Assembly (NCBI GenBank): GCA_045544955.1
Contig: JAZPZY010000005.1
Coordinates: forward strand, 35,571-99,570
Length of the DNA: 64,000 nt
Source of the DNA: Eubacteriales bacterium
Lineage (GTDB): Bacteria; Bacillota; Clostridia; Oscillospirales; CAG-272
Direction: 5' to 3'
Under the pieces are notes generated by a model. It had not been told where the DNA came from and did not search any database. It saw only the letters and a list, made by a program, of their open reading frames with translations. Each line of letters starts with the position of its first letter. Position 1 is the stretch's first letter. Made by a program: the position numbers and the translations under genes. Below are positions 8,087 through 27,116 of this stretch, in pieces.

Positions 8087-9502
8087 TTAGTCCTCCTTCT
8101 GCGTCCCGAGTACGGACGCTATAAAATCATTTTCAACCTTTCGCTGGCGGATCACGTCCCGCCAGTCCTTGCCGCTCTCTGCACACACCGCCTGCAGCGT
8201 AGTCATGTTTGCCTCCACGCCCCTAACCGATGCGTTTATATCTTTCTGTGGGTCCACCCACTCCCAGCCTACCGGCATCCAGCTGTGTGCCGTATATTTC
8301 CGGCGGTTTCTGACGAAATCCGCCGCCCGGATCGGCACTTTTCCCTCCAACACGGCATATTCCAGCCATGCCTCGTACACCGGCGTACACAGCTCACAGA
8401 TGAGCCAGTCCTGCAGCACCTTGAACGTTCGCTGGTCGTCAAGAAGTGCCTGGCGTGCCGAGGAATAATTTACCCCGGACATATCTCGGGAAAGCGATTC
8501 GTAGGACAGTCCCAGGGATGCCGCAAACAGTCTCGTCTGTATCTTCACAAACTCTGTCATATTGGCACCCGCACCGTTCTGCGGATTGATCGCCTCCACC
8601 TTCTCGCCCGGCTGCATCTCCATCACCATACCCGGCTTGATGTTCAAACGACGCTCCTTATTCTCGCCTCCGGCCGATGCACGCCCATAGCCACCACCGC
8701 TCTCCAGCTTGGTGATGGCAATGCCGAAGCAAGCAAGCATCCGTTCCTTCACGGTGATCGCTTCGATGTAGCTGTTCAAATGTGCAATAATGGACATGGC
8801 GGACGCCAGCGGTGTGATCTCTCTCACTTGGGATGGGCGGCTCCGGTGCCTGAGATAAAGCACCCGGTTTGCGGGCAGCTCTTCACTCTCCCGCATCACA
8901 TACGCCGAATCGTACGTATACCCCGACAAATGGTAGCTGAGAATGCGTCCCGTGCGATCCACCTCCACGCCGCCGAACACGCTGCCGCCTGCGGCGGAGT
9001 ACGCACCGTCCAGCTCATCCACTTCCCGGATCTGCAAACGGAAACCGTTTTCCTTGTCAAAGCATTTCACGACAAGCAGTCCGCCGTCTATGATCCGCCG
9101 GCGAAGTGCCATTCGCTGGATATCCTCAAAACTGTAGCTTCCGGTCACGTCACACCGGTTTTGCCATTCCCACCACGCCGTCTCAATGGCACGGTTCAGT
9201 GCCGCATCTTCCGTCTTTCCGTCCTCACTCATGACGGACGGCTGCAGAACGATGCCGGTAGATACCACGTTTCTCTCAAACGCCGAAAGTGCCGCGTTTA
9301 CAATATCCGAATTACGCTCCAGATCCCGTGCACGGGCACGCAGAGTGTCCCGCACGCCGGATTGCTCGTTCTCCGCCGCATCGTTCACCGCTCGCCATCC
9401 GCCGTGCAGGCGGTCCTTCGCTGCCGCATCATAAGCGCGGAGCAGCTCCCGCTTTCCCCTCTCCGGCGCGACGATGTACCGGAGTTTTTCCCATACGTTC
9501 AT
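8087..9502 (-). CDS. Portal protein, lambda family
   Basis: MNVWEKLRYIVAPERGKRELLRAYDAAAKDRLHGGWRAVN... is a lambda gpB-like N-terminus. Start chosen at the ATG preceded by GGAGGTGA. Confidence 0.85.
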   Translation of the reverse strand: MNVWEKLRYIVAPERGKRELLRAYDAAAKDRLHGGWRAVNDAAENEQSGVRDTLRARARDLERNSDIVNAALSAFERNVVSTGIVLQPSVMSEDGKTEDAALNRAIETAWWEWQNRCDVTGSYSFEDIQRMALRRRIIDGGLLVVKCFDKENGFRLQIREVDELDGAYSAAGGSVFGGVEVDRTGRILSYHLSGYTYDSAYVMRESEELPANRVLYLRHRSRPSQVREITPLASAMSIIAHLNSYIEAITVKERMLACFGIAITKLESGGGYGRASAGGENKERRLNIKPGMVMEMQPGEKVEAINPQNGAGANMTEFVKIQTRLFAASLGLSYESLSRDMSGVNYSSARQALLDDQRTFKVLQDWLICELCTPVYEAWLEYAVLEGKVPIRAADFVRNRRKYTAHSWMPVGWEWVDPQKDINASVRGVEANMTTLQAVCAESGKDWRDVIRQRKVENDFIASVLGTQKED

Positions 9503-9506
9503 CGTC

Positions 9507-9719
9507 TCACCTCCGGTCAAATTCGGCGTACATTACACCGCTGTATCCGCCTGACTGCTCGCCAGCCGCCATGGCACGGAGTTTTCTCCTCTCTTCGTAG
9601 AGTGTGCCGAGGCTTGCCCTCTCCACTCTGCGCGAACCGATAGAATAACTCTGCGCGCCGCTTTCTATGGCTTCGATCGCTTCCTCGATCCGTTTTAACT
9701 GTTCACTGTAGGAGTTCAC
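9507..9719 (-). CDS. gpW-like head-tail joining protein
   Basis: 70-aa ORF between the large terminase and portal, as in lambda. SYSIGSRRVERASLGTLYEERRKL fits the gpW pattern. Confidence 0.55.
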   Translation of the reverse strand: MNSYSEQLKRIEEAIEAIESGAQSYSIGSRRVERASLGTLYEERRKLRAMAAGEQSGGYSGVMYAEFDRR

Positions 9720-9726
9720 GTCCTAT

Positions 9727-11571
9727 TCACCAACTTTCTGTATTTCCGTCCGACCAATCACCGCCGGAGGACCATGCGTCCCCGTCGTGCGCGGACGCCG
9801 CTTTTTCCGTTTCCTGAACATTCTCTCCCCGCGCCGCCGCTCGCGTGATCGCCCGGTATCCCGCAATGTCCGCCGCCGCCGCCGCGTACACCTCGCAGTC
9901 CAGATAATGGTTATCTGCATGTGAGGTCTTCGGCCGCCAGACTGACACTTTTTTGCCGTTTCTTCTCTCTGTCACCTTCTGCTCTGCCGTCACCTGCGAA
10001 AGGTACTCCTCATCGCAATCCTCGTATACTTGGAAGCCGCCAGACGCAAGGATTCCTCCGTAGATCGCGTCCTTGTACAGGCCTGTGTCCACGATCACCA
10101 GCTGCATTCCGTTTGCGCGGCTCCCCTCTCTCTCGATGCTGCTGATGCGGTATCGGCTGTACATCTGCGCCGAGGAACCCTTGGACGGCAGCGCCCACTC
10201 CCGATGCACGGCACAGTATTCATACACATCGTCCGTCTGGTCGCCCGAGTCGATAAGACACAGGTTTACCAGATAACTGCCGCCATCTACCGAGAGATAC
10301 GGTCTGTTCATAACGTCTGTTATGTCGTCCCAATGCTCCGCGAATCCGTTTTCGATAAGGCACCTCGTCCCGTCCGGCAGCCACGCCCGTACTACGAAAT
10401 AAAATCCTCTTCTCTGTACGTCCACACCGCCCGTGAGCAGCACCGTGCCATGCGGCACCACGCCACGCCCGTATCCGGATGTCTTGCGGCCCAGCAGCTG
10501 TGCATCCGCAGAGCCTTCGATTTCCTTCCACGGCTCTGCAAGCCAGGAATTCACGAAGTTCATGAGTGACTCCGGATCATCCTTCGACACCTTGAACTCA
10601 TACGCGATATCGCCAAGCGTCAGCCACGGCGATGCAATGGCGTTCAGATGATACGCCGAATGCAATTTTGATCCGTTTGAGCGCGTTTCCCGCCACTCTC
10701 CCGCGCCTACGGCCTTTTTCAGCATGCGGTCGTCCATTGCCGAGCCGCAGTGAGGGCAAACGTAAACGGCAGTCTTTCGTGCCAGATTGGCGTCTCCCTT
10801 CACGTCGTCCCATCGGATCTGCGAAAATCGAAGTGTCTGAAAAACGTCGCAGTGCCCGCATGGTACGAAATACTCGTACTGCGTGTCCGCCTCCATCCAG
10901 GACGTCCACACGGACCCCGTTTCCAGTGTCGGTGTGGAGGTAACTACGATTTTCTTTGAGTGACGAAACGTCTTTGTTCGCTCGATGGCAAGATTGATCG
11001 GGTTTGCCTCTTTTCCCGCCATTCGCGGGTATTTGTCCACCTCATCCATGAGCACATACCGCACGGGACGGGATGCCAGCGATGCCGGCGAATTGGCCCC
11101 GGACAGCACGATGTACATATCGTCAAACTGCAGTTCCAGTTTTTTGGAATGCGGATCAAATTTCCGTGCAATCGGCTCACACAGCTCTATCATCGGCCGC
11201 ACACGGTTGTCGGAGGTCGTCTCCGCAAGATCAATGGTCGGGTACACGGCCATAAGCGGCGATGGGTCCTGGTCTATGGCGTACGCCATGGCGTTCAGGA
11301 GCGTCTCTGTGCCGCCCACCTGCGTCGGCTTCACAAAGGTGATCCGCTCCACCTCCTTGTCACCGAAGGCATCCATGATCGCCCGGAGGTACGGCGTGCG
11401 GTCCGTCCGCCATCTGCCCGGCTCTGCGTTGGACTTTGCCCCAAGGATCCGGTACCTGTCCGCCCACTGGGATACGGTCAGATCATCCGGCGGCTTCAAT
11501 ACCGCCAATGCGTCCGCGATATACGCAGGAAACAGCGTTTCATTCTCCGTCATACTGGAAATCTCCCGCAC
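9727..11571 (-). CDS. Terminase large subunit, lambda GpA family
   Basis: LTVSQWADRYRILGAKSNAEPGRWRTDRTPYLRAIMDAF...KPTQVGGTE is a typical GpA N-terminus. 614 aa; the start could instead be the Met at 11553. Confidence 0.85.
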   Translation of the reverse strand: MREISSMTENETLFPAYIADALAVLKPPDDLTVSQWADRYRILGAKSNAEPGRWRTDRTPYLRAIMDAFGDKEVERITFVKPTQVGGTETLLNAMAYAIDQDPSPLMAVYPTIDLAETTSDNRVRPMIELCEPIARKFDPHSKKLELQFDDMYIVLSGANSPASLASRPVRYVLMDEVDKYPRMAGKEANPINLAIERTKTFRHSKKIVVTSTPTLETGSVWTSWMEADTQYEYFVPCGHCDVFQTLRFSQIRWDDVKGDANLARKTAVYVCPHCGSAMDDRMLKKAVGAGEWRETRSNGSKLHSAYHLNAIASPWLTLGDIAYEFKVSKDDPESLMNFVNSWLAEPWKEIEGSADAQLLGRKTSGYGRGVVPHGTVLLTGGVDVQRRGFYFVVRAWLPDGTRCLIENGFAEHWDDITDVMNRPYLSVDGGSYLVNLCLIDSGDQTDDVYEYCAVHREWALPSKGSSAQMYSRYRISSIEREGSRANGMQLVIVDTGLYKDAIYGGILASGGFQVYEDCDEEYLSQVTAEQKVTERRNGKKVSVWRPKTSHADNHYLDCEVYAAAAADIAGYRAITRAAARGENVQETEKAASAHDGDAWSSGGDWSDGNTESW

Positions 11572-12046
11572 TCATCTGCCTGAGTGCATCGTTGATCCGG
11601 CCGGTGATTCTTTTGTCCAGCTCCCGTGCCGTCTCCGGCGTGATCTCCGGGGCAATCTCCGAAACGATCTCCCGCCCGAGTGCCTGCAATTCTTTTTTTA
11701 GTACACCGCAGAACCGCCGCAGATCCTCCGTAATCTGTTCAGTCGGCAAGAGCTCCCCCTTCAGAGACATTACCTTCATCTGCTGCAGTTCCGCCAGAGC
11801 CGCCTTATGCTGTCCTTCGTAGTAAATCTTCTGTTGTGCCAGTGTCATATTCCCGACGTCTTTTGATTCATCCGGCGAACCGGCACCACGCCATTTCGCC
11901 ACATCCCGGAGAGAATATACGCCGCGGCCGTACTTCGGACATCCCGCCTTTGTCCACAAGTTCACTGTCCTCGTGGACACGTCGTAGATCTTCGCCAGCA
12001 TCTCCGATGATACCAGCACGTCATCCTCCAGCACCTTGACCTTCAC
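11540..12046 (-). CDS. Terminase small subunit (HTH, Nu1-like position)
   Basis: GTG start at 12046, 6 nt after GGAGGGA. HTH segment MLAKIYDVSTRTVNLWTKAGCP. Overlaps the large terminase start. Confidence 0.6.
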   Translation of the reverse strand: MKVKVLEDDVLVSSEMLAKIYDVSTRTVNLWTKAGCPKYGRGVYSLRDVAKWRGAGSPDESKDVGNMTLAQQKIYYEGQHKAALAELQQMKVMSLKGELLPTEQITEDLRRFCGVLKKELQALGREIVSEIAPEITPETARELDKRITGRINDALRQMSAGDFQYDGE

Positions 12047-12059
12047 AGCATCCCTCCTA

Positions 12060-12185
12060 TCGCGAAATTTTAAGTCAAGCCGATTTCGCAATTTCCGCAC
12101 GCGCACCCATTATGCACGCCCGTGCGGCAAATGCGAAATTGCGAAGCGATTTTTTCACCCACAAAACCGGTGAAATTTCGCGGCT
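12060..12185. repeat. Cluster of GCGAAAT / ATTTCGC motifs upstream of the small terminase gene (cosB-like candidate)
   Basis: GCGAAAT at 12062 and 12133. ATTTCGC at 12083 and 12175. Degenerate copies at 12091 (ATTTCCGC), 12141 (GCGAAG) and 12187 (GTTTCGC). Confidence 0.5.
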
Positions 12186-12404: not shown

Positions 12405-12761
12405 TTATTGGTTTTCGAGTTCCCGTATCGCATCCCTCGTGAGATACGATATAGATCGCTCCGACTTTTCCATCACCACGGCAGTCTTCAGCCGGCCCCA
12501 TCCCTTGATGAAGCGGTAATACAAAACGCTTCTGTGGAGAGGATGCGACAGTTCCTGGATCGCCGCTTCGATCCTCTCCGCCGATCGTGTCCTCTCCGCG
12601 ATGATCCGCTCGTATCGCTTCGCTACGCGCAAGGCCGCCTGTCGCTCACTGGGAGAGGACGTATATAAAGCCCCCCTCTCCGCTTCCGCTTTCCGGCGGT
12701 GGAGCTCCGCGAGTTCCCTCTTCACCACTCGATATTCCCTGAGTTCTTCTTTTGTCACCAT
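12405..12761 (-). CDS. Sigma-70 region-4-like phage transcription regulator (DUF1492/ArpU-like)
   Basis: 118 aa. N-terminal coiled coil, then C-terminal HPLHRSVLYYRFIKGWGRLKTAVVMEKSERSISYLTRDAIREL resembling an ECF region 4 HTH. Lies just upstream of the packaging genes. Confidence 0.5.
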   Translation of the reverse strand: MVTKEELREYRVVKRELAELHRRKAEAERGALYTSSPSERQAALRVAKRYERIIAERTRSAERIEAAIQELSHPLHRSVLYYRFIKGWGRLKTAVVMEKSERSISYLTRDAIRELENQ

Positions 12762-13222
12762 GTTTCTACCTCCTGTACCTCCTTCACTTCGATTCCGTGT
12801 ATCTCCCGCATCAGCTTACGCTTGTCAAGATATGTCCTCGTGCGTGTCGCCGCGGATTTCACATCCTCCACCACCAGCACTCCTCCCTGCCGGTATGAAA
12901 AATCCGCCCGGTACCGGAGAGCACGCACCCTCTCCCCATCCGATGTGGTGTATGCTTCGATCAGCGTAAACTCTGGCTGTATTTTCAAATCGCTGATCTG
13001 GCCAGATCTGAGCAGCAGAACAAGCGCGTCATAGCGGCGCGCTTCTTTTTTGCTGTCAAATTTCAGTTTCCCGCGGTCCTCTTTCACCGCACCGTACTTT
13101 CCGTGCCGTTTTCCGTCCCGGACGTCCGGCAATTTCGTCTCACCGCACTGCCGCCGATAGATCTCCAAGGCACGTTTCGCGGCAACGTCGGAGAGATCGT
13201 TTATGCTGATTCCCACGCCCAC
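12755..13222 (-). CDS. DUF1064 endonuclease-like protein
   Basis: KFDSKKEARRYDALVLLLRSGQISDLKIQPEF...YRADFSY...VVEDVKS matches the DUF1064 signature. Confidence 0.75.
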   Translation of the reverse strand: MGVGISINDLSDVAAKRALEIYRRQCGETKLPDVRDGKRHGKYGAVKEDRGKLKFDSKKEARRYDALVLLLRSGQISDLKIQPEFTLIEAYTTSDGERVRALRYRADFSYRQGGVLVVEDVKSAATRTRTYLDKRKLMREIHGIEVKEVQEVETW

Positions 13223-13291: not shown

Positions 13292-14044
13292 CTATTCCAC
13301 TTTCGGGACATCTTTTTTACTGTAATTTCGTTTTTTCGGTGGTATTATGTATATAAAGTGTAAGAATCCAAAAGGAGTAGTTTCTGCTTTTACCAAAACG
13401 TATCCCTTCGGTGCGCTCGGAGGATTCTTTTCGCTGTACTCTTCTTTCACTTCCTCGGCCGGTTCTTCCTGCGGTTTTTCATGGTTCCTTGTGGCATAGT
13501 AGTGATGACCGCCCTGTTCAGGCGTCCAGTTCTTCCAGTAATATTCAGCAAGCTGCGTATAATCTCGTCCTCGATCCACTCCATCGTATATATTGTGTTC
13601 CCGCAGCGGTTGGCATTCTTTGATTTTTCCCCACGTCCATTGCTCCAAAATCTCATCTCGCGGCACACCGCCAATGATAGCGTGAAAATGAATCTTTCCA
13701 CTCTTTTTGTGCTGTCCCATCACGACAATAATCTTGGCATCCGGATATCGGCGGCGAAGGCGGCGCACATAAACGGAACGCATTCTGCGCCCGTCGTCAA
13801 ATTCATAAATTTCATAATCCGAATTAAAAGTAAAGGTGCACTTAAAGGAGGACGGGTCGTGATTTGCGTTCACGAGGCGGATAAACTTCCGGAGAGCAAC
13901 TCTATCCTTAAACGCTATATATTCCTCTGCAGTAGAAAAACGCACACGCTTTTTGTATGTTTTCGGATTTGCAAAATCCGGTATACTGTATACCACCTGT
14001 TCACATACACACCCGGCGTAGATTGCCTTTTTTACCCGCTTCAT
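13292..14044 (-). CDS. HUH rolling-circle replication initiator (Rep)
   Basis: Motif 1 FKCTFTF, motif 2 (HUH) KIHFHAIIGG, Tyr-containing motif YTQLAEYYWKN. 250 aa. Confidence 0.65.
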   Translation of the reverse strand: MKRVKKAIYAGCVCEQVVYSIPDFANPKTYKKRVRFSTAEEYIAFKDRVALRKFIRLVNANHDPSSFKCTFTFNSDYEIYEFDDGRRMRSVYVRRLRRRYPDAKIIVVMGQHKKSGKIHFHAIIGGVPRDEILEQWTWGKIKECQPLREHNIYDGVDRGRDYTQLAEYYWKNWTPEQGGHHYYATRNHEKPQEEPAEEVKEEYSEKNPPSAPKGYVLVKAETTPFGFLHFIYIIPPKKRNYSKKDVPKVE

Positions 14045-15576: not shown

Positions 15577-15996
15577 TTAAAACGGTAATTCTTCATCTGG
15601 AGCGATCTCCTCAAAATGCGGCTGTACCGGCGGCGCGGCCGCAGCCTGTCCGGCGGCACTGTCTGATTTGGAATCTATGAAGTGCGCTTCATCGGCGACC
15701 ACCTCCGTGGCGTACCGCTTCGCCCCGTTCTGATCCGTCCATGACCGGGACTGCAGACTGCCCACAATGCAGATGGACGATCCTTTGCGGAAATACCGCG
15801 TTATGAACTCCGCAATCCCTCTCCAAGCGGTGACGTTGATGAAATCCGCCTGTGGATCGCCGTCCTTCGGTTTGTACGTACGGTTCACGGCGATGGAGAA
15901 GGTTGTCACCAGCACACCGGCCGGTGTGGTCTTCAGCTCCGGATCGGCGGTCAGCCGCCCGGCAAGAATCACCTTGTTAAAGTTTAAGTTTGCCAT
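15577..15996 (-). CDS. ssb: Single-stranded DNA-binding protein
   Basis: MANLNFNKVILAGRLTADPELKTT...FINVTAWR OB-fold pattern and an acidic C-terminal tip DEELPF. Confidence 0.9.
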   Translation of the reverse strand: MANLNFNKVILAGRLTADPELKTTPAGVLVTTFSIAVNRTYKPKDGDPQADFINVTAWRGIAEFITRYFRKGSSICIVGSLQSRSWTDQNGAKRYATEVVADEAHFIDSKSDSAAGQAAAAPPVQPHFEEIAPDEELPF

Positions 15997-16004
15997 CGGG
16001 AGCC

Positions 16005-16331
16005 TCACCATTCTCTTTCCATGTTGATCGGTGTTCCGACCGTTCCAACGCTCTCGTTGCTGTCGGTCGGCCTGAAGTGTTCTCCGGGCATCGGGTACAT
16101 ATACCGGAACATAAGGTAGTTTGCTGCGTCCACAAGATGCTCCGTGTTATGGTCTTTCTTGAACGCTTCGATACACCTTTCAGCCGTTGCTACGGCGTCC
16201 ACTCTGCCGCTTGCAAAGTTATCCCTCGCCGGTCCGTATTTGTAATACGATACCTCCACACGGTATTTTCTTTCTTTGTCGAATGAATCGCTGTAATCAC
16301 TTGCGATTTTCCTTTTTTCGTTATCGGTCAT
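16005..16331 (-). CDS. Hypothetical phage protein
   Basis: 108-aa ORF in the early operon. Confidence 0.4.
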   Translation of the reverse strand: MTDNEKRKIASDYSDSFDKERKYRVEVSYYKYGPARDNFASGRVDAVATAERCIEAFKKDHNTEHLVDAANYLMFRYMYPMPGEHFRPTDSNESVGTVGTPINMEREW

Positions 16332-17386: not shown

Positions 17387-18184
17387 TCAGCCCTCCTGCA
17401 AAAGTTTCATTTGCCCGTTTTCAAAATTACACCACAAAACCTCTGTACGTGGATCGGAGTTTTGATTATAGGAAGGCCTCTCACGCCTTCTCCACCCCTT
17501 CAAGTATGTATCATACATATCCGAAGGATATCCGCTGAGTATCACCATTCCTTTGTGATCCAGCAGTGCTTCCAGAAGATTAACGTGATCCTGCTCATTC
17601 ATTTCATGACGATACTGTTTCCCGCCCCTCGTGTGGAGCAAATACGGCGGATCTGCGTATATCAAAACATTTTCATGGTTGAATTTTTTGATCAGCTCCA
17701 AAGCAGGTCTATTTTCTATTTGCACGTTTTTCAATCTTGAAGCGGCTTCCAAAATTCCCTGCGGCATCTTATTCCAGCAGTCCACGCAGTAGGATCTTTC
17801 ACGTGCAAATACATCAATTTTGAAACCAGTTTTCTCATAGGTCTTGAAACCGTGTCCCATTCTTGATCTTATCGCGAATCGGTACGCTCTATCAAGAGCA
17901 GATCCTCCTCGGCGTTCATGCGCGTCATCAAACACTTCCCGTGCATACGGTGTCAATGCAATCATACGCGCCAATTCATCGGCGTTCTCTCGTAATACGA
18001 AAAAGAAATTTGTTATATCTCCATCAATATCATTCACTGTCTCAATAGCAGAAGGCTCCTTGTTGAACAGCACGGCGCCGGATCCGAAATAAGGCTCTAA
18101 ATAGGATCGATGCGGCGGCATCATGGATACAATTTCTTTCGCCATTCCCCATTTAGCACCGGGATAATTGAGAATTGCTTTCAT
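17387..18184 (-). CDS. DNA adenine (N6) methyltransferase, Dam/D12 class
   Basis: MKAILNYPGAKW...SYLEPYFGSGAV...IYADPPY motifs. Start taken at the TGATG overlap with the upstream stop, not the ORF start at 18277. Confidence 0.85.
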   Translation of the reverse strand: MKAILNYPGAKWGMAKEIVSMMPPHRSYLEPYFGSGAVLFNKEPSAIETVNDIDGDITNFFFVLRENADELARMIALTPYAREVFDDAHERRGGSALDRAYRFAIRSRMGHGFKTYEKTGFKIDVFARERSYCVDCWNKMPQGILEAASRLKNVQIENRPALELIKKFNHENVLIYADPPYLLHTRGGKQYRHEMNEQDHVNLLEALLDHKGMVILSGYPSDMYDTYLKGWRRRERPSYNQNSDPRTEVLWCNFENGQMKLLQEG

Positions 18185-19995
18185 CACGCAGTCACCTCCG
18201 TGCTTTCCACGCAATGCTCCGGCAGATTGGCTCTCACCAACGCCGCCGGCACAGGCGGGGTGACAGCATTTCCGCACCTGGCAACCTGTTTCGACTTCGG
18301 ATACGGCTTCCCTTCGTAATCTATATCGATGATGTAATCATCCGGGAATCCCTGGGCGTTGAACAGTTCTCGAGGCTGCAGCATACGCATCCGAATATCC
18401 GTAATTATGTATTCCTCGCCATGGATCGTCACAAGAGCAAAGCGATCTTTCGTGGTTACAGTATCAAGCGGTTCATGGACGGATTTTGCCGCACCACTTG
18501 AAAAATACTTCACAAGAAATGCTTCCACTTCTGCGTGGTGTGCTCCGCTGCACGAGACGGTAGACAACGGCTCGTCTGCCGGTTGCCCGTCCATGTTGTT
18601 TCTAAGAGTCAGAATGTGTGCCGTTACCAGACTGTTGTGGTCTTTTGCCGTAATCGTATCGAGCGGAGCATAAACATCACTGCCGGCTCCTTTATAGTTT
18701 CCGGCGTAATTCTTCATAATATGTGCGACTGAAAGTGCGTATCGATTCGATGTATCCTGTGTCATAAGCGGCTCATCAAGTTCTTGCCCTCTGACCTCAT
18801 CCTTTGCCGTCTCAGAATGATACTGGATCAACGTCGGGGCTACCATACCAAATCGGGTAGCTCCCGCCATCACAGTATCTATCGGTCGGTCTATCTCTTG
18901 CCCTTTGCTGTTCTGATTGAATGTTGTAATGATGGGCGTTATAAGGTAATTCCTGTTTCCTGTCGTCACCGTCGGCAGAGGAGAGTCCGCACTGGCCCCT
19001 GTGTTGTTCGTGTTGTTGCACATGATTGTCGGAACCACCACTCCGTACCCGTGCTTTGCAGTTACAGTCTGCAGCGGTTCGTCTATCTTCTGTCCTCGGA
19101 ATCTATCTCCTGCGTGATTCACAGACACAATGAACGGTTCCGGATTCTCAATGACGAACTTTTGGATCCCACGGGCAATTCGCCTCAAGGTATTTTCCGC
19201 CAGTGGTTTTTCTCGTTCAAAGATGCTTTGTGCCGGTATACTCCAGTCAATGCAATCCGCTGCTGTACGGTATGGGAGCAGGCGGCCCTCCCTCACTCCA
19301 CTTGATCCCCGTTTTCCGTGCGTCGGCTTCGGCCATACTATTTGCTTTCCGTCACACCGACCAATCATATAGAATCTTGTACGCGTCGTCGGTGCTCCGT
19401 AATCGCAGGACTTCAGCACCCGGAAATCGATCACGTACCCAAGCCCGTTCTGCAAATCATACGCCATAGGAGAGTCGATTGCTATTCCGAGTGCATCACA
19501 CATCTCACGAAAGGCAGGGTGATCCGCCGGGATCCCGGTTGTCAGTGCAAGAACAAACCCGGCGAACGTCTCGCCGGCACGCTCTTTGATTGGCTTGTTA
19601 TCTTCTCCCAGAGGGCCCCACGTCTGTATTTCCGGTACGTTCTCCAACATAATCACACGTGGGCGAACAGCGTATGCCCATTTGACCGCAACCCACGCAA
19701 GCCCTCGTATGTTTTTGTCCATAGGCTTACCGCCCTTCGCGCGGGAAAAATGCTTGCAATCCGGGCTAAACCACGCAAGAGCCACGGGCTTTCCGGCGCA
19801 GGCTTCCACGGGATCCACCTGCCAAACGTCCTCACAGTAGTGCTTAGTACTCGGGTGATTTGCTTTGTGCATGGCAATCGCGTCCGGATCATGGTTGATC
19901 GCAATGTCAACGCTTCTGCCAATAGCCAACTCAATGCCAGTGGAAGCACCGCCGCCGCCGGCAAAATTATCGACGAATAGTTCGCGTCCATTCAA
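18184..19995 (-). CDS. DNA cytosine-5 methyltransferase with expanded repeat-containing target-recognition region
   Basis: Motif I DNFAGGGG, motif IV FSPDCKHFS, motif VI MLENVPE, motif VIII TTRTRFYMIG, motif IX RMLQPRELFNAQGFPDDY, motif X CGNAVTPPV. About 330 aa lie between motifs VIII and IX. Confidence 0.85.
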   Translation of the reverse strand: MNGRELFVDNFAGGGGASTGIELAIGRSVDIAINHDPDAIAMHKANHPSTKHYCEDVWQVDPVEACAGKPVALAWFSPDCKHFSRAKGGKPMDKNIRGLAWVAVKWAYAVRPRVIMLENVPEIQTWGPLGEDNKPIKERAGETFAGFVLALTTGIPADHPAFREMCDALGIAIDSPMAYDLQNGLGYVIDFRVLKSCDYGAPTTRTRFYMIGRCDGKQIVWPKPTHGKRGSSGVREGRLLPYRTAADCIDWSIPAQSIFEREKPLAENTLRRIARGIQKFVIENPEPFIVSVNHAGDRFRGQKIDEPLQTVTAKHGYGVVVPTIMCNNTNNTGASADSPLPTVTTGNRNYLITPIITTFNQNSKGQEIDRPIDTVMAGATRFGMVAPTLIQYHSETAKDEVRGQELDEPLMTQDTSNRYALSVAHIMKNYAGNYKGAGSDVYAPLDTITAKDHNSLVTAHILTLRNNMDGQPADEPLSTVSCSGAHHAEVEAFLVKYFSSGAAKSVHEPLDTVTTKDRFALVTIHGEEYIITDIRMRMLQPRELFNAQGFPDDYIIDIDYEGKPYPKSKQVARCGNAVTPPVPAALVRANLPEHCVESTEVTA

Positions 19996-21332: not shown

Positions 21333-21665
21333 TTAATCTCCTTTTACATATTTCTTTTGGTTCATCCCGAGTGTATACACCCGCGTTTTAACTGCATACC
21401 TGCTTCTGGCGATTCTTTCCGCGATCGCCGTGTAGCTTGCTCCCGCCGACAGCATGTCCACGAGAATCGCATCCTGCTCCGCCGTCCACCGCGGAGCCTT
21501 TTTCTTTCCGGCTCTCTGCCCTTTCGTCAGCATGTCCACCCCGTTCCGCTTAAGGATCTCCACGATCACGTCCCGGGTAACGCCGTTCAGTTCGGCAAGC
21601 ACTCTGATCTCTTTCGGCGGAGACTTCGCCTGACGGTACAGCGTCACGATGTCCCCGTCACTCAT
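21333..21665 (-). CDS. Two-HTH phage regulator, GcrA/Myb-like C-terminal motif (paralog 1)
   Basis: MSDGDIVTLYRQAKSPPKEIRVLAELNGVTRDVIVEILKRNG plus WTAEQDAILVDMLSAGASYTAIAERIARSRYAVKTRVYTLG. ATGA overlap start. Confidence 0.5.
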   Translation of the reverse strand: MSDGDIVTLYRQAKSPPKEIRVLAELNGVTRDVIVEILKRNGVDMLTKGQRAGKKKAPRWTAEQDAILVDMLSAGASYTAIAERIARSRYAVKTRVYTLGMNQKKYVKGD

Positions 21666-21669
21666 CCAC
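21545..21669. repeat. Direct DNA repeat, copy A (~125 bp, ~88% identical to 22120-22244)
   Basis: atctccacgatcacgtcccgggtaacgccgttcag...gatgtccccgtcactcatcca is shared by both copies. Confidence 0.8.
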
Positions 21670-22255
21670 ACTTTGTTCTCTCCTTTTCTTGCAAGCATAT
21701 ATCCATATTACCGATTGAACTTTTCAGACATACGCCGTGTTCGGTTACTTCAACGGCGGCAAACTCTGGTTGACCAATTTCACGTACGATCGCAGCGAAC
21801 ATATCAGCAATCCTTACAAGTTTACCTGCAACATCTGATGCAGATGCCGTGCTCTGTTTCGCGACCTCTTCCTTATCCACTTCTTCTGCAATTTTCTTTC
21901 CTTCTTCGCGCAGTTTTTTAAGTTTCGATACAATCGCCGCTTTCGTTCTTCCAAGTTCTGCAGCGATTTGTTCTGCTGTAAGGCCGAGTTTCTTCTTATC
22001 AAGCATATACTTTACTTCATCTGGAGTCCATTCCGGTCCTCTCATTTTCTTCTTTGCCCCTTTCTCTTTGCTTTTTTCAAACGTTAAAGTATCTTTATAG
22101 TGCTTTAAAGTAATTCCATTTCGTTCAAGAATCTCCACGATCACGTCCCGGGTAACGCCGTTCAGCTCGGCAAGCACTCTAATCTCTTTCGGCGGAGACG
22201 CCGCCTGCCGGTACATCATTACGATGTCCCCGTCACTCATCCACGGCCGGCTCAT
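21662..22255 (-). CDS. Two-HTH phage regulator, GcrA/Myb-like motif (paralog 2, with extra C-terminal domain)
   Basis: MSDGDIVMMYRQAASPPKEIRVLAELNGVTRDVIVEILERNG plus WTPDEVKYMLDKKKLGLTAEQIAAELGRTKAAIVSKLKKL. Confidence 0.5.
   Translation of the reverse strand: MSRPWMSDGDIVMMYRQAASPPKEIRVLAELNGVTRDVIVEILERNGITLKHYKDTLTFEKSKEKGAKKKMRGPEWTPDEVKYMLDKKKLGLTAEQIAAELGRTKAAIVSKLKKLREEGKKIAEEVDKEEVAKQSTASASDVAGKLVRIADMFAAIVREIGQPEFAAVEVTEHGVCLKSSIGNMDICLQEKERTKCG
22120..22244. repeat. Direct DNA repeat, copy B
   Basis: See copy A. Encodes the duplicated N-terminal HTH domain. Confidence 0.8.
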
Positions 22256-22527
22256 GCTGTTCCCGATGCGATAGGTTTCTTCTCTACGTAATCCTTGCCG
22301 TCCAGCGTTGCCAGTTTCTCCGGATGCTTTTGAATGTACGCACTTGCCGCCCGGCTCATAGCCGCCGATGCCTTTTCCGCATATCCGTCCGGTAACCGGT
22401 CCACCGGTTTGCCATCGTAAAAGATTTGGTATGTAATCTTCTGATTCCGTCTTCCTGCCACATCGTTCACCACCTTTCTGTCAGTGTATGTTATGTTTGC
22501 ATATCGGTGCGTGTCCCTCTCCCGCAT
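22252..22527 (-). CDS. Hypothetical early protein (start uncertain)
   Basis: Start taken at the ATG overlapping the cro-like stop (TGATG). The ORF extension to 22644 overlaps the cro-like gene. Confidence 0.35.
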   Translation of the reverse strand: MRERDTHRYANITYTDRKVVNDVAGRRNQKITYQIFYDGKPVDRLPDGYAEKASAAMSRAASAYIQKHPEKLATLDGKDYVEKKPIASGTA

Positions 22528-22733
22528 CAGGCGGGAGTTTCTTTTTGTTCCGGCTGACGGAGCAATTCGTCCACCGTGCAGCCCAGCACGTCCGCCAGCT
22601 TCGGCAGAAGATCTGCCCTGGGTTTCACGGTTCCGTTCTCCCATTGAGAAACGGCACCTTGCGTAACACCAAGCTGCTTCGCTATGTCGGTCTGCGTAAG
22701 AGATCGCTTTTCACGAGCCTCACTAATTGTCAT
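22527..22733 (-). CDS. Cro-like XRE HTH repressor
   Basis: MTISEAREKRSLTQTDIAKQLGVTQGAVSQWENG. GGAGGT SD. First gene of the leftward early operon, divergent from cI. Confidence 0.8.
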   Translation of the reverse strand: MTISEAREKRSLTQTDIAKQLGVTQGAVSQWENGTVKPRADLLPKLADVLGCTVDELLRQPEQKETPA

Positions 22734-22770
22734 GTGCTACCTCCGTTATCATTTTAATAGTTGTGCTATT

Positions 22771-22799
22771 ATAATATCACACGCCAATATATTTGTCAA
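22771..22799 (-). promoter_or_regulatory. Leftward early promoter (cro side)
   Basis: Minus strand: TTGACA (22794-22799), 17 nt spacer, TATTAT (22771-22776) with an upstream TG. Confidence 0.6.
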
Positions 22800-22831
22800 T
22801 AGTATTTCTAATATTTTTTTCATAAAAAACA

Positions 22832-22860
22832 TTGAAATATATTAGTTATTCTAATATAAT
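22832..22860 (+). promoter_or_regulatory. Rightward lysogenic promoter (cI side)
   Basis: TTGAAA (22832-22837), 17 nt spacer, TATAAT (22855-22860). GTGAGGTGA SD before the ATG at 22880. Confidence 0.6.
22839..22857. promoter_or_regulatory. Candidate operator palindrome ATATTAG-n5-CTAATAT
   Basis: Perfect 7-bp inverted repeat overlapping the cI promoter spacer and -10. A half-site TTCTAATAT recurs at 22806-22814. Confidence 0.45.
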
Positions 22861-22879
22861 ATATTTGTGAGGTGATTTT

Positions 22880-23500
22880 ATGAACAGAATACAAGAACTT
22901 CGCAAAGGCTTGGGATACTCTCAACAGAAACTTGCGAAATGCTTAAACGTACATCAAACTGCGATTTCTCAATGGGAAACCGGCCGGACAAGCCCCGATA
23001 TTGACGTGGCAACCGTTATGTCTCAATTATTCGGCGTCTCTTTGGAATATTTGCTCGGCATCTCCGATGAAGGCAATGTATCCACCCCCGCCGTCGCAAA
23101 CATTCTCCCTCTCCCGGAGACGTACGAGATTCCGCTGCTGGGCGACATCGCCTGCGGTACGCCTATTCTCGCCACGGAGAACGTGGAGCAGATGGTCACT
23201 GTTCCCTCTCACATCACCGCCGATTTCTGCCTCCGCTGCAAAGGTGACAGCATGATCGGTGCCCGGATCTACGACGGCGATCTGGTGTACATCAAGCAGC
23301 AGGACGACGTGGACGACGGCCAGATCGCGGCGGTACTCGTAGACGACGAAGCCACGCTAAAGCGGGTGTACCGTGACGGCGACAGCATGATCCTGCAAGC
23401 CGAGAACCCGGCGATCAAGCCGCAGATATACACGGCCAAGGACGCCAAGAACATCCGGATCATCGGATTGGCTGTTGCATTTTTGAGTAAGGTAAGGTGA
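22880..23500 (+). CDS. cI/LexA-like repressor (XRE HTH + S24 peptidase)
   Basis: N-terminal HTH LGYSQQKLAKCLNVHQTAISQWETG. C-terminal S24 motifs CKGDSMIGARI (Ser) and ATLKRV (Lys). Confidence 0.85.
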   Translation: MNRIQELRKGLGYSQQKLAKCLNVHQTAISQWETGRTSPDIDVATVMSQLFGVSLEYLLGISDEGNVSTPAVANILPLPETYEIPLLGDIACGTPILATENVEQMVTVPSHITADFCLRCKGDSMIGARIYDGDLVYIKQQDDVDDGQIAAVLVDDEATLKRVYRDGDSMILQAENPAIKPQIYTAKDAKNIRIIGLAVAFLSKVR

Positions 23501-23509
23501 GAGTGTTGC

Positions 23510-24595
23510 ATGCGATGGGCAATACTGATAATTATTATTTTATTGATTCTTAATTCACTCGATTTTAATCAAATCGGCGACGGTGCAGCTCTTATCATTA
23601 TCTTACTGTTTCTATTGATTCCTTTTGTTCTCTACCTAATCTCCAAAAAGTACGTAAAAAAGAATCCCAATTCAATGGCATCACGCCCTAAGGAAGACTA
23701 TAGCGAGCCCACACATATAGAACAAACTGTATCTCGTTACAATCGATACACTGACGAGGACGACGATTACAAATACTGCCCCGATTGTTTTTTGAAAAAC
23801 CCGGACGATCGCTGGTACTGCATAGAATGCGGTCACGCTTTTGCTGAAGGCGAACCGACCGTGACTTCTCACGAACACCCTTTCGAATACAGTTACTGGC
23901 TTTCGCCCAAATTCCGAACGAAACATCAACGCACCCGGTTTCGGCGGGCATCTCAAATTCAAATGAAGTCACACACGCCTGATTTTTACCATGCCACTGT
24001 GTATTCTTCTGATCGCTCCTCCCTTTACGAAGTCACCCCAGAAGAGTGTTCGTGTCAAGATTTTTTCAAGCGTGGACTGCCATGCAAGCACATGTATGCG
24101 GTAATGATAGAGGCAAATGTTTTATCTTCGATTGCTTCTCTCTACAATCTGCCGCGTAACATCTCCGCTCGTATTGACAATTTGCATGACATCTCAAAAG
24201 ATTCCGCCCGTGAATTTGCTTTGTTTCTCCGATACAAGCGTTTTAATTCCAACAGCGTGATCGTAGATCGTTCAAATGACGTTTTTGCACATCTCCCGAA
24301 TATCGTATCTTCTTCTCTTATAGAAATAAATTTCTCCACTACCGATCTGATTGCATATGTTGAAAAAACATACACCGTCGATGAGTTCCGGGAAGTCTGT
24401 TCAGCCGTTGCACCGGAATTGGAACTTCCTAAACTGAAAAAGCATGATTTGATAGAGTTTGCTCTTTCGCAAAAACTTGAATTATCCGAATATTTCTCAA
24501 ATTTAGTTTACTTTGTTCGCATTCCGGATGATGTTTTCACCCACCGAAGAGATATTTTCGATTATTATTTTGAAGAACACCCGGATGCGGTTTGA
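23510..24595 (+). CDS. Membrane-anchored zinc-ribbon + SWIM zinc-finger protein (lysogeny-module moron)
   Basis: Two N-terminal TM helices (WAILIIIILLILN, ALIIILLFLLIPFVLYLI). CPDC...CIECGH zinc ribbon. SWIM CSCQDFFKRGLPCKHMY. C-terminal segment with an HeH/SAP-like LPKLKKHDLIEFAL. Clearly more AT-rich than its neighbours. Confidence 0.7.
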   Translation: MRWAILIIIILLILNSLDFNQIGDGAALIIILLFLLIPFVLYLISKKYVKKNPNSMASRPKEDYSEPTHIEQTVSRYNRYTDEDDDYKYCPDCFLKNPDDRWYCIECGHAFAEGEPTVTSHEHPFEYSYWLSPKFRTKHQRTRFRRASQIQMKSHTPDFYHATVYSSDRSSLYEVTPEECSCQDFFKRGLPCKHMYAVMIEANVLSSIASLYNLPRNISARIDNLHDISKDSAREFALFLRYKRFNSNSVIVDRSNDVFAHLPNIVSSSLIEINFSTTDLIAYVEKTYTVDEFREVCSAVAPELELPKLKKHDLIEFALSQKLELSEYFSNLVYFVRIPDDVFTHRRDIFDYYFEEHPDAV

Positions 24596-24654: not shown

Positions 24655-26106
24655 ATGGACATAACCGCCCCAAAAATCGCCGCCGCGTACCTCCGTGTAT
24701 CCGACGAGCGGCAAGACGAATTCTCCCCGGACAGCCAACTGAAGCGCATCCGCGAATACTGTGACGCCAACGGCTACGAGCTGCCAAAGGAATATATCTT
24801 CTACGATGACGGCATCAGCGGCAAATCTGTGAAACGCCGCGATCAATTTCGGGATCTTATCGCCCTGGCTAAAGACAAGGAGCATCCCATCGATGCGATC
24901 CTGGTATGGAAGTTTTCCCGATTTGCACGAAATCAAGAAGAAAGCATCGTATACAAGTCCCTCCTCCAAAAGATCGGCGTGACCGTCGTCTCCATCTCTG
25001 AGCCGCTTCCGGAAGGCCCGTTCGGCAGTCTGGTGGAACGTATCATCGAATGGATGGACGAATACTATCTTATCCGCCTGTCCGGCGAGGTAAGACGCGG
25101 TATGCTGGAGAAGGCATCCCGCGGAAAGCCTGTCACCGCTCCGGCGTTCGGTTACGATCTGCGGGACGATACGTATTACCCGAATGAGGACGCCGACACG
25201 GTGCGTGCCGTTTTCTCCGCTTTCATCGCTGGGGATGGTATGCGGGAAATTGCCGTTCGTCTGGGTAATGCCGGCGTCCGCACACGCTTCGGAAACGTGC
25301 CTGACAACCGCTGGATCGAATACATGCTGAACAATCCGGTGTATATCGGAAAGATCCGCTGGTCAACAGAGGGCCGTACCGTTTCCAGGCGGCAATACGA
25401 TGACCCGAACACGATCATTTTTGATGGACAACACGAGCCGATCATCACAGAGGACGTTTGGAACGCCGCCCAGGCACTTTTGCTGCAGCGGAAGACAAAG
25501 TACGCCAAGCATGCCAAACGTGAGCAGAAGCCGTCCACGTTCCCTCTCCGCAGTCTATTCCGATGCAGTGCCTGTGGAGCTACGCTTGTCCAGAACCAAA
25601 CGAAAAGCCCGTCTCTGCAATGCCACAACTACTCCCGCGGCACATGCACGATCTCTCACAGCATCACGCAGAAAAAAGCAGAGGCCGCACTCAGTGAGGC
25701 ACTGGAGGAGTCTATCCGCACCCTCACTTTCCACGTGACGCCCAAACCGGAACTTCTCTCCTCTCCCGATAATCTGGATATAGAAAAGAGCATCGCCGCA
25801 GAGCAGAGACGTCTGCAGCGTGCCAAAGATGCGTATCAGAACGGCGTCGATACACTGGAAGAATACGCAGAAAATAAAAAAAGGATCACGAAACGCATTC
25901 GTGATCTTGAATCTCAATTAAAACCGGTTCAGCCGGTGTCTGTTCCCGCAGAAGCCTACGCCACCCGTGTCGCCGACGCTCTAAACCTTCTTCGTGATCC
26001 GGACGCTGACCCCGGCATGAAAAACAGTGTATTGCTTGAGGTTTTGGAGAAAGTGGTCTTCCATGCGGATACCCGCCAGATAGACATATATTTCCGCCCT
26101 CTGTGA
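24655..26106 (+). CDS. Large serine recombinase (prophage integrase)
   Basis: AGGAGGA SD. AAAYLRVSDERQDEFSPDSQ catalytic Ser motif, recombinase domain, zinc ribbon CSACGATL...CHNYSRGTC, coiled-coil tail. 483 aa. Confidence 0.9.
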   Translation: MDITAPKIAAAYLRVSDERQDEFSPDSQLKRIREYCDANGYELPKEYIFYDDGISGKSVKRRDQFRDLIALAKDKEHPIDAILVWKFSRFARNQEESIVYKSLLQKIGVTVVSISEPLPEGPFGSLVERIIEWMDEYYLIRLSGEVRRGMLEKASRGKPVTAPAFGYDLRDDTYYPNEDADTVRAVFSAFIAGDGMREIAVRLGNAGVRTRFGNVPDNRWIEYMLNNPVYIGKIRWSTEGRTVSRRQYDDPNTIIFDGQHEPIITEDVWNAAQALLLQRKTKYAKHAKREQKPSTFPLRSLFRCSACGATLVQNQTKSPSLQCHNYSRGTCTISHSITQKKAEAALSEALEESIRTLTFHVTPKPELLSSPDNLDIEKSIAAEQRRLQRAKDAYQNGVDTLEEYAENKKRITKRIRDLESQLKPVQPVSVPAEAYATRVADALNLLRDPDADPGMKNSVLLEVLEKVVFHADTRQIDIYFRPL

Positions 26107-26110
26107 ATCA

Positions 26111-26221
26111 TCAGCAAAAGCCATCCGGACCGCCAAGTTGACTGACAATGATCTGTGCGTACTTGGGATTCGGGTTTTTAATTTTTACGGGGAACTGCAA
26201 TTCTTTTCTATACACCCACAT
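26111..26221 (-). pseudogene. cotJC: cotJC 5' fragment (34 native codons), truncated by the prophage junction
   Basis: GGAGGG SD. ATG at 26221, 3 nt after the cotJB stop. MWVYRKELQFPVKIKNPNPKYAQIIVSQLGGPDG then FC-stop. Compare B. subtilis CotJC MWVYEKKLQYPVKV...EQYGGADGEL (from memory). Confidence 0.8.
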
Positions 26222-26224
26222 ATC

Positions 26225-26650
26225 TCAACCCTCCCAGGGCCAGGGCAGACGTGCCCAAAGCCATTCATTTTCGCAACGGTTACCTTCGGCCGTCAGCGGA
26301 CCGTACTGTTTTTCAAATTTTTCCGCCAGTGCTTTGTAGTCATTTACCGCACAGCGATACCGGGCAAGTGCGTCGGCGTTATCCGGATGACCGTCCAGAT
26401 ACAGTTCCAACTCTACCACCACGAAATACAGTGCCATCAGTTTTTCCCGCATCTGGCAAAAATCGTTCCGGTTCCAGCCGGCCGGCATCACGCCGGTTTT
26501 TGTACCGGGCATCCGGTACCCGTCACCGCACGTACCGGCTCTCTCCCCGTCACGGAAGCAGCCGTCCGTCCGACGGGCAACACCGCCGACACAGCTTCGC
26601 CGTTCCGGTGAAGGATACCGGCACGCGTTTCCACGCATATTGCAAATCAT
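26225..26650 (-). CDS. cotJB: Spore coat protein CotJB (start uncertain)
   Basis: C-terminal part LMALYFVVVELELYLDGHPDNADALARY...YGPLTAEG...WLWARLPWPWEG is the CotJB signature. Start placed at the ATGA overlap with cotJA; a shorter form could start at MREKL. Confidence 0.8.
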   Translation of the reverse strand: MICNMRGNACRYPSPERRSCVGGVARRTDGCFRDGERAGTCGDGYRMPGTKTGVMPAGWNRNDFCQMREKLMALYFVVVELELYLDGHPDNADALARYRCAVNDYKALAEKFEKQYGPLTAEGNRCENEWLWARLPWPWEG

Positions 26651-26976
26651 ACGCATCCTCCTCTCGTTCCGTTGGCATCCTTAATGGGAAGATACAGATT
26701 CTGAAACAGCGTACCGTGAGCCAGTGCTTCTTCCGCACAGGAAAACACGTCGCCGAAACCCTGATAGGGAGAGGACACCATAGCCAGCGGCGAATCAGAC
26801 CACTGATCTGCCGTGCCGCACGGTCTGTCCTCGGCGGGAATCTCCGCACAGTCGCAGCTGCATCCGTCCGCCACCCGGGAGCATATCTCGCGTGTGACCG
26901 TGATCGGTCCACGCATCATCATATCCGTACAGTCACCGCAGATTCGCGGCGATGCAGAATAATCGTACATTTTCAT
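26647..26976 (-). CDS. cotJA: Spore coat-associated protein CotJA
   Basis: PLAMVSSPYQGFGDVFSCAEEALAHGTLFQNLYLP matches the CotJA motif (LAMAYVPxQ...AL..GT.F..L..P). Start at MKMYDYS. Confidence 0.7.
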   Translation of the reverse strand: MKMYDYSASPRICGDCTDMMMRGPITVTREICSRVADGCSCDCAEIPAEDRPCGTADQWSDSPLAMVSSPYQGFGDVFSCAEEALAHGTLFQNLYLPIKDANGTRGGCV

Positions 26977-27077
26977 TCTAACAATACCTTTCCGATAATC
27001 GTCTCGACGGTGCGAAAATCCGCACTGTCTGACAGTACCATCATATGTCATCTGTGCACGGATTGTGACGATTCCGG

Positions 27078-27116
27078 AAGAAAAGAAATCACCGGCTTTG
27101 CGGTGCAAAGCCGGTG
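27078..27116 (-). terminator. Intrinsic terminator after the lipoprotein gene
   Basis: 12-bp stem CACCGGCTTTGC/GCAAAGCCGGTG (27090-27101 / 27105-27116) followed on the minus strand by ATTTCTTTTCTT. Confidence 0.7.

Follow-up and report, generated by a model that had tools for sequence, protein, structure and literature searches.

This report concerns a 64,000-nucleotide stretch of DNA (the window, i.e., the whole stretch at its full length) from an uncultured gut Clostridia bacterium, in which about 26 kb of phage genes come to an end inside the spore-coat gene cotJC. Very probably what is seen is a myovirus-like temperate phage that was integrated into cotJC by its own large serine recombinase (LSR), that is, by its integrase. 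The LSR would have recombined a palindromic phage attachment site (attP) of about 48 bp, lying right after the LSR's own stop codon, with a bacterial attachment site (attB) within cotJC. The lysogen's operon would then supply only a 36-residue CotJC stub, with the rest of the gene found at the other prophage end, and precise LSR-mediated excision would give back the 140-aa open reading frame (ORF) of prophage-free conspecifics. Such excision, as recombination between the hybrid sites attL and attR, would require a phage-encoded recombination directionality factor (RDF).

The gene whose coding sequence is interrupted is the last of a cotJA-cotJB-cotJC operon on the minus strand. In B. subtilis the cotJ genes are expressed in the mother cell, under sigma-E. 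Here cotJA occupies 26647-26976 (Pfam CotJA, E 4e-9), with 26976 the likely start and 109 aa the resulting length, as in the gene call of a conspecific contig (L084); the longest ORF extends to 27108, and a terminator scan places a terminator-like hairpin upstream, at 27116-27090. It is followed by cotJB (26225-26650; 141 aa in the public record; Pfam CotJB, E 1e-24), the product of which is 99% identical to a protein (P0121) of prophage-free JGI metagenome contigs. The cotJB stop codon, TGA, is at 26227-26225, and 3 nt further, preceded by GGGAGGG, is the ATG (26221-26219) of the cotJC 5' stub (26111-26221, minus strand). That stub, MWVYRKELQFPVKIKNPNPKYAQIIVSQLGGPDGFC, consists of 36 codons, i.e., 34 of CotJC and then Phe-Cys-stop (stop at 26113-26111) as read from the phage arm. 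It matches positions 1-34 of the Pfam Mn_catalase profile (E 3e-8), and its 34 residues are the same as those with which CotJC begins in the intact conspecific allele (P0135, on L084), from which it differs by three synonymous nucleotides; because of that identity a chance match is excluded. As a separate observation, CotJB and the long CotJA ORF (together 26225-27108, minus strand) both have Cys-rich N-terminal extensions ahead of short Pfam domains, which span residues 68-142 in CotJB and 107-141 in CotJA, and the CotJB extension is confined to close relatives (14 database matches).

The element carries its own site-specific recombinase at this end. The LSR gene (24655-26106, plus strand) encodes 483 aa, with matches to Resolvase (PF00239, 1.9e-26), Recombinase (PF07508, 2.5e-19) and Zn_ribbon_recom (PF13408, 4e-6). 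Its layout is that of its class, i.e., an N-terminal resolvase domain with the serine nucleophile, a recombinase domain and a zinc ribbon, and the catalytic motif, YLRVSDERQ, can be read from the translation. The LSR stop codon, TGA at 26104-26106, is 5 nt from that of the stub. An earlier note on this DNA, made from the letters and their translations, had described the operon context (cotJA, cotJB, the ribosome-binding site and the ATG at 26221), the 34-codon CotJC N-terminus, the Phe-Cys-stop break at 26111-26113 beside the stop codon of a 483-aa LSR, and 26 kb of phage genes. Every coordinate given there is right, with the Pfam matches, the identical conspecific allele, and PHROGs matches extending about 26 kb to the left of the LSR all agreeing with it.

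The conspecific contig L084 is the empty site of the same species. Over 3286 bp it is 98.2% identical to window positions 29405-26120, with homology stopping exactly after the GGC of Gly34, at 26120, beyond which L084 continues into uninterrupted cotJC. A further conspecific contig, L085, is likewise 98.2% identical and cotJC-intact, so that the uninterrupted cotJABC for which the earlier note had advised looking among relatives is found within the species itself. Nor is the stub native to the species, since conspecifics without the prophage have cotJC uninterrupted; an occurrence of the stub in prophage-free relatives, which the note had allowed would sink its claim, is not what these conspecifics show. 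The attB so defined, ATTGTCAGTCAACTTGGCGGTCCGGATGGCGAACTCGCAGCC, found at L084 3260-3300, consists of the conserved Leu-Gly-Gly-Pro-Asp-Gly codons (CTT GGC GGT CCG GAT GGC) of cotJC.

What an attP of this LSR family looks like is seen with an ENA contig (L082) and with L083, the LSRs of which are 90% identical to that of the window. Right after the LSR stop codon both carry ATCATCAGCAAAAGCCGTCTGG-ACCG-CCGGACGGCTTTTGCTGATGAT, a palindrome of 48 bp, the L082 arms of which are 22 nt long, 95% complementary and 4 nt apart. A palindromic attP (an inverted repeat of about 40-50 bp) is seen as well in L342, with an LSR that is 66% identical; it is in these relatives, L082 and L342, rather than in an excised form of the window's own prophage that such a palindrome is observed. 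The window keeps the left arm of the L082 attP and then turns to host sequence, giving an attL junction at 26107-26134 (plus strand), as defined by alignment with the L082 attP and with the attB contig. There the phage P arm, ATCATCAGCAAAAGCCATCCGG, occupies 26107-26128 and the centre, ACCG, 26129-26132, with a 15-bp core common to attL and attB at 26120-26134. In cotJC sense the core of attP, attB and attL reads GGCGGTCC(G/A)GA(T/C)GGC. The P arm is unique in the window (0 matches expected by chance), which holds no second att arm; of the two hybrid sites attL is thus the one present in the window, with attR seen in a sister species only (L090).

In attP the centre of symmetry coincides with GG of codon Gly31. 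Related elements break at Gly30 and Gly31 as well, as is seen in L344 (...QLGG/ANCIYR and then a stop, with the slash marking the junction), L001, L070 and the second attP, that of L342. Because of that symmetry centre and those breakpoints, crossover is placed most likely at the Gly30/Gly31 codons, that is, at CC 26130-26131 (GG of Gly31 in cotJC sense). By the same token the stub's codons P32-D33-G34-F-C-stop, though the first three of them spell CotJC, probably are phage DNA which mimics that of the host.

The remainder of the gene lies elsewhere. When the window was searched by tblastn with an approximate sequence of B. subtilis CotJC, the stub and an intact Mn-catalase-family paralogue at 61215-61877 were returned, and no 3' part. 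Residues 35-140 of the intact allele, used as a query, found instead a 92-aa protein (P0140) that is 100% identical to residues 49-140 of P0135 and that occurs on just one NCBI contig, 100,260 bp in length. Five proteins of the window, namely its tail sheath, LSR, CotJB, Mn-catalase paralogue and solute-binding protein, each occur on one NCBI contig as well, the length of which again is 100,260 bp. Since both sets fall on a single NCBI contig of identical length, it is deduced that the cotJC 3' fragment sits on the window's own contig, outside of the window. The stub (residues 1-34) and P0140 (residues 49-140) match P0135 exactly, residues 35-48 being those not seen directly. As judged from these sequences, both halves of the gene appear to be retained, and precise excision would restore the conspecific 140-aa ORF. 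The far junction is predicted to have a P' arm, ...CATCAGCAAAAGCCNNCNGGCGGTCCGGATGGCGAACTCGC..., ahead of the 92-aa ORF, in the layout ...CATCAGCAAAAGCC-NNCN-GGCGGTCC/GGATGGCGAACTCGCAGCC... (slash as above), followed by cotJC codons 35-140 and, beyond these, by the gene of a 1001-aa ABC transporter. The earlier note had expected a 3' fragment at the opposite prophage end and, with the halves joined, an intact frame of about 190 aa: the fragment exists, placed on the same contig by deduction, and the joined frame is open and matches that of conspecifics, but its length is 140 aa.

Other searches aimed at the sites and junctions added little. A 42-mer from the end of L084 has no match in metagenome contigs, nor does the attR pattern, and an att-arm pattern with 14 specified bases gave random matches only in viral contigs. 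A scan of genome contigs with the conspecific CotJC gave as its best split match L090, from another species, and the window's own genome was not among its matches. The closest GenBank phage integrase (PQ006094.1) is only 39.7% identical and has no cotJC-like core or inverted repeat downstream. With PHROGs, the genes to the right of attP in L082 gave no matches and the phage end of L090 none that was informative.

Sister species and more distant relatives repeat the arrangement. In a sister species one contig (L081) has a 36-aa stub along with cotJB and cotJA, encodes an LSR that is 78% identical to that of the window, and shares the ABC transporter, whereas another (L090) carries the other side, i.e., the P' arm with the cotJC codons from 30 on behind it, as ...CATCAGCAAAAGCCGCCTGGCGGTCC/GGATGGCGAACTC... 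and then codons from 35 on. The L081 stub plus the L090 fragment equals that species' uninterrupted allele (P0137, found on 8 contigs) bar one Ser/Thr difference in the non-CotJC tail. LSRs that are 68% identical have the same layout on three contigs (L343-L345), and overall LSR homologues of 66-90% identity adjoin either cotJC stubs or palindromic attP sites. Further out, 12 of the 53 IMG/VR loci with usable downstream sequence have a cotJC piece beside an LSR 38-52% identical to that of the window, and do so in both orientations, i.e., with a 5' stub on the opposite strand or with the 3' part on the same strand. A junction arm at this same cotJC site, ...GGTAAATGGTGTTC/GGTGGTCC, is also present in a close relative, GCA_054276695.1 (L340, 1-10060), where the neighbouring element encodes a MuF_C-domain protein of 3304 aa; that element differs in kind from the window's phage, and the cotJC 3' part is full length in that genome.

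This recurrence bears on whether the join between phage and operon could be an artefact of assembly or binning. The organism is uncultured and the window comes from an NCBI assembly, probably a metagenome-assembled genome (MAG), as are all of the closest named relatives; prophage joins can be misassembled in MAGs, and the exact join is seen on one contig only. The same join, however, recurs in other species whose assemblies are independent (L081, L343-L345, L001, L070), which argues against misassembly, and its position coincides precisely with an att core for which a separately assembled attP offers a match. An artefact accordingly is extremely improbable.

Besides the probable MAG origin, other points weigh against integration as described above. 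The place of the 3' half is deduced from the matching 100,260 bp, rather than the far prophage end being read directly. The prophage is cut by the window within its tail module, with the tail-end and lysis genes beyond, so that completeness of the whole phage is not established. No RDF was recognised among the prophage genes in the window. Lastly, the rebuilt ORF would be of only 140 aa and would be without two of five Mn ligands, such that restoring it may not restore a catalase.

How excision might be controlled is suggested by the lysogeny module, which lies at the same end as attL. A divergent sigma-70-type promoter region (22746-22884) separates a plus-strand lysogeny operon from a minus-strand, cro-like early operon, with TTGAAA-17-TATAAT at 22832-22860 on the plus strand and TTGACA-17-TATTAT, with TG, at 22799-22771 on the minus strand (both being consensus matches only). 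The first gene of the lysogeny operon (22880-23500, plus strand) encodes a CI/LexA-like repressor with helix-turn-helix (HTH) and S24 peptidase domains (HTH_3, E 9e-15; Peptidase_S24, E 2e-28), and the same gene is in the same position in L081. Because the LSR is part of this operon and the repressor is of the S24 self-cleaving type, constitutive production of integrase and SOS-triggered induction are suggested. That is, the integrase probably is made constitutively with excision gated by an RDF, and the phage may be viable and may excise upon SOS induction. Between the repressor and the LSR is a 361-aa protein (23510-24595, plus strand) that has a SWIM zinc finger (Pfam SWIM, E 7e-7) and, at its N-terminus, a membrane segment; it has no PHROG match and could be an accessory factor or could have a superinfection function. 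Its slot is filled by a 353-aa gene in L081 and by a different HTH-membrane protein in L082.

From one perspective the prophage may be viewed as a simple lysogen in a safe harbour. The cotJC motif is conserved, the gene is silent during growth and it is dispensable, such that excision would occur on induction only and spores would be made without CotJC. To this we give roughly an even chance. The S24 self-cleaving repressor domain is typical of SOS induction, and the prophage is polymorphic within its species, with one conspecific contig carrying it and six lacking it. Targeting by LSRs of the most conserved codons of cotJC fits with a maximisation of host range. The species' cotJC, as considered below, already is C-terminally truncated, and a Mn-catalase-family paralogue is present. 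The latter (61215-61877, plus strand) is intact, 220 aa long and 35% identical to B. subtilis CotJC, has GGGNGE in place of GGPDGE at the motif where the prophage splits cotJC, and belongs to a large and conserved cluster of 1227 members; it could offset CotJC loss. Against simple lysogeny are strong purifying selection on cotJC, given which its loss probably is not neutral, and the precedents of the skin, SPbeta, vfbin, vrin and gin elements.

From a different perspective, excision may be developmentally timed, i.e., occurring in the mother cell during sporulation by way of a sigma-E/K-controlled RDF or integrase, such that cotJC would be rebuilt early enough for the coat to be assembled, with the forespore keeping its prophage. 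This is a refinement of integration into cotJC rather than a replacement for it, and we hold it as a possibility only, rated below that of simple lysogeny. It is consistent with cotJC being a mother-cell coat gene (sigma-E-dependent in B. subtilis, as is general knowledge), with both halves of the gene being kept, with several LSR lineages being long associated with cotJC, and with strong purifying selection on codons 35-136 (a ratio of nonsynonymous to synonymous substitution rates, dN/dS, of 0.036). Precedent is the basis of the argument for excision of a skin or SPbeta sort: skin, SPbeta, vfbin, vrin and gin all excise in this manner (PMC4191935, PMC5595907, PMC5025042, PMC10747680), the exception being yin, with excision that is only growth-phase dependent (PMC10747680). 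A scan of 27 kb for sigma-E/K promoters, however, returned one match, intragenic, versus 1.08 expected (the consensus used is that of B. subtilis and may not transfer), the LSR is within a sigma-70-type lysogeny operon, an RDF is not recognised, and the prophage is polymorphic in the species rather than fixed. In addition, CotJC loss in B. subtilis is without obvious spore defect (PMC12122855), which together with the paralogue may imply weak selection for timed excision, and the purifying selection could stem wholly from the uninterrupted state of the gene. Of the assignment to a skin/SPbeta-like class in the earlier note, a prophage with a terminal LSR that splits cotJC stands, whereas the sporulation-specific part finds promoter matches at chance level and no recognised RDF.

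The uninterrupted conspecific allele is itself unusual. It is 140 aa in length (ending EDLAA-DAALS and then a stop), versus about 200 aa in most relatives, and 15 of 79 full-site alleles in related genomes, along with those of L084 and L090, diverge exactly after EDLAA(E/D). Divergence at this second site (site 2, as distinct from site 1 where the prophage sits) begins at a palindromic junction, GCAGCA-GA-TGCTGC, and continues into tails that are similar and of variable length. The break is near the cotJC 3' end and is found at L084 3575-3607 and L090 1715-1852, and also in L086, L094, L096, L097, L104, L108, L115-L117, L147, L149, L152, L153 and L163. In Agathobaculum butyriciproducens DSM 100391 a 518-aa LSR (L163, 10528-12084) is located right at it. 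A natural short isoform was considered as an explanation of the 140-aa allele and is rejected in view of the variable tail, the palindromic junction and the Agathobaculum LSR at the same break. What is missing corresponds to codons 137-200 of full-length relatives (QKARVTYDNLLRL...REREIVHYQRF), the REREIVHxQRF stretch of which we take to hold the C-terminal His Mn ligand, with the other ligands presumably in GE (its Glu), EExxH and AAE (its Glu). The conspecific uninterrupted allele, ending at residue 140 and without the C-terminal helix, consequently does not have the full four-helix di-Mn site.

It could be, then, that cotJC was already dead in this species, truncated at codon 136, with insertion of the prophage having no functional meaning. 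An intact allele of 140 rather than about 200 aa, lacking the C-terminal helix and last Mn ligands, is in line with this, as is the failure to find the last approximately 60 codons within 10 kb of the allele or in the window. Over codons 35-136, on the other hand, dN/dS between two species with the same truncation is 0.036 (61 nucleotide versus 4 amino acid differences), and no copy has frameshifts or stops. Because of that ratio those codons appear to be under strong purifying selection, with the truncated gene not decaying, and we consider a dead gene to be quite unlikely. The site-2 junction is common to the two species of the window's lineage, with flanking DNA that is 74% identical; the genes downstream of it resemble core genes, namely those for an ABC transporter and a sigma factor together with dpaAB, and within 10 kb of it no LSR is found in that lineage. 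The junction may be either an active element or a scar.

Across relatives and viral contigs, cotJC has a multi-site, double-split architecture. A second LSR family was found in IMG/VR, in which 30 of 54 loci adjoin a cotJC piece. All but three of those pieces (27 of the 30) end at codon 136, starting at about codon 30 (site 1) in 15 and at codons 63-65 (TEELAH) in 12, with the other three loci adjoining a 3' piece from codon 133. Many loci are double splits, in the order second-family LSR, codons 30-136, first-family LSR. In L009 and L028 codons 30-65 are flanked instead by an LSR of the first family and one of a third family. Three-piece cotJC loci are L170, L172, L174, L176, L183, L188, L189 and L197 (all IMG/VR) as well as L009 (9509-12677) and L028 (1287-4475). 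The three LSR families are 25-27% identical to one another, and their targets in cotJC are three motifs, GGPDGE, TEELAH and AAEQKAR, each of which presumably holds a Mn ligand. Upon alignment to the solved Anabaena Mn catalase the first two motifs are conserved and the third aligns with AAEAG. As a side observation, L161 (7006-7098) and L162 (11129-11215) have a second copy of the last approximately 30 codons of cotJC (RFGEALR...), 0.6-1.1 kb downstream of an intact cotJC. This resembles the trace of a further element, which would integrate at the cotJC 3' end and thereby duplicate it.

A more ambitious, and rather unlikely, interpretation of this architecture is that cotJC of gut Clostridia is a multi-lock gene, that is, one that is split by three LSR families at three motifs and from which a full Mn-catalase coat protein would be regained only through two independent excisions, both of them in the mother cell. 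The window's genome would then combine a strain-specific prophage at site 1 with an old site-2 junction that is common to the sister species.

The prophage itself is, as judged from gene content, a myovirus-like temperate element of at least 26 kb which looks complete as far as the window reaches, with modules from lysogeny through to tape measure present. Its body (1-22733) is on the minus strand throughout, as annotated with PHROGs. A Cro-like HTH protein (22527-22733) is next to the early genes, two of which, adjacent to each other, contain a 129-nt direct repeat (21541-21669 and 22116-22244; 90% identical). Both of those genes match one PHROG, a D5-like transcriptional regulator, and represent a tandem gene duplication. 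There follow two adjacent DNA methyltransferases of 296 and 603 aa (17387-19995), possibly anti-restriction or epigenetic cargo, then a single-stranded DNA-binding protein (15577-16011), a replication initiator (13292-14044), a Holliday-junction resolvase (12755-13222), and the small (TerS, 11540-12106) and large (TerL, 9727-11571; E 3.5e-188) terminase subunits. The structural genes are those of portal (8087-9520; 2e-94), protease/major head (6151-8085), head decoration (5810-6133), tail sheath (2890-4299; 4e-58), head closure (2357-2887) and a tape-measure-like protein (495-1922). Baseplate, fibre and lysis genes, along with the far att site, would fall to the left of the window.

With its attB, attP and attL, and with attR seen in a sister species, the present case is a well-documented clostridial addition to the few sporulation genes in which LSR elements are inserted, and it concerns a gene, cotJC, that so far has only been named in lists. 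Should excision indeed prove to be timed to sporulation, then cotJC would join sigK, spsM, spoVFB, spoVR and gerE, as the first of these with multiple locks. Taken more widely, the pattern suggests that the composition of the spore coat in gut spore-formers is steered by phages. With LSR lineages converging on the most conserved codons, cotJC represents also a natural test bed for target choice by serine integrases. From a practical perspective, an LSR family whose att sites are defined, at about 48 bp each, may serve as a source of orthogonal integration tools for gut Firmicutes.

Of known systems, SPbeta in spsM of B. subtilis (SprA integrase, SprB RDF) is similar in a number of ways. Each is an apparently intact temperate phage, here as far as the window reaches, with its LSR gene at the prophage end, by the att site, and each is inserted into a mother-cell spore-envelope gene, both halves of which are kept such that excision would restore the ORF. 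With each, in addition, integrase probably is expressed in the lysogen, leaving control to the RDF. The differences are that here the target is cotJC, the host is of Clostridia, the phage is sheath-bearing and of about 40-60 kb, and neither an SprB-like RDF nor a promoter of the mother-cell type was recognised. When the window's LSR was compared by HMMER with solved structures, matches were confined to three other serine recombinases, each in its catalytic domain; among them there was no full-length integrase and no structure named for SPbeta. The skin element in sigK (B. subtilis SpoIVCA; C. difficile CD1231/CD1234) likewise interrupts a mother-cell sporulation gene, but skin is degenerate and fixed, with sigK being essential late in sporulation, whereas here a full-looking phage is polymorphic and its target is a non-regulatory coat protein.

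Closer in terms of host is yin in yabG of Clostridium botulinum (PMC10747680), which also is prophage-like and strain-specific, encodes a serine recombinase and sits in a sporulation gene of a clostridial host, its attB being conserved in element-free strains. For yin, however, circular excised forms and growth-phase dependence have been measured. A C. difficile prophage, phi027, has an att site that adjoins a CotJC-family gene, the CotJC-like cotG/CDR20291_1465 (PMC12122855, PMC11222575), though as described it is beside that gene rather than inside of it.

The earlier note treated cotJC as a target not known to have been described. It is no new target, as cotJC is listed among phage/transposon integration sites by Abe et al. 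(2013), at least as that work is cited in bioRxiv 10.1101/2021.11.22.469490 (Kohm 2021), and bioRxiv 10.1101/2022.02.25.481979 (Galperin 2022) refers to a skin-like element in cotJC of Laceyella sacchari. Those cases have the same target gene and involve SpoIVCA-like recombinases; they differ in being from Bacilli and in being named in passing, with no att sites, insertion position, experiments or multi-site account found for them in the searchable literature. It is the multi-site, double-split pattern of cotJC that most likely is new.

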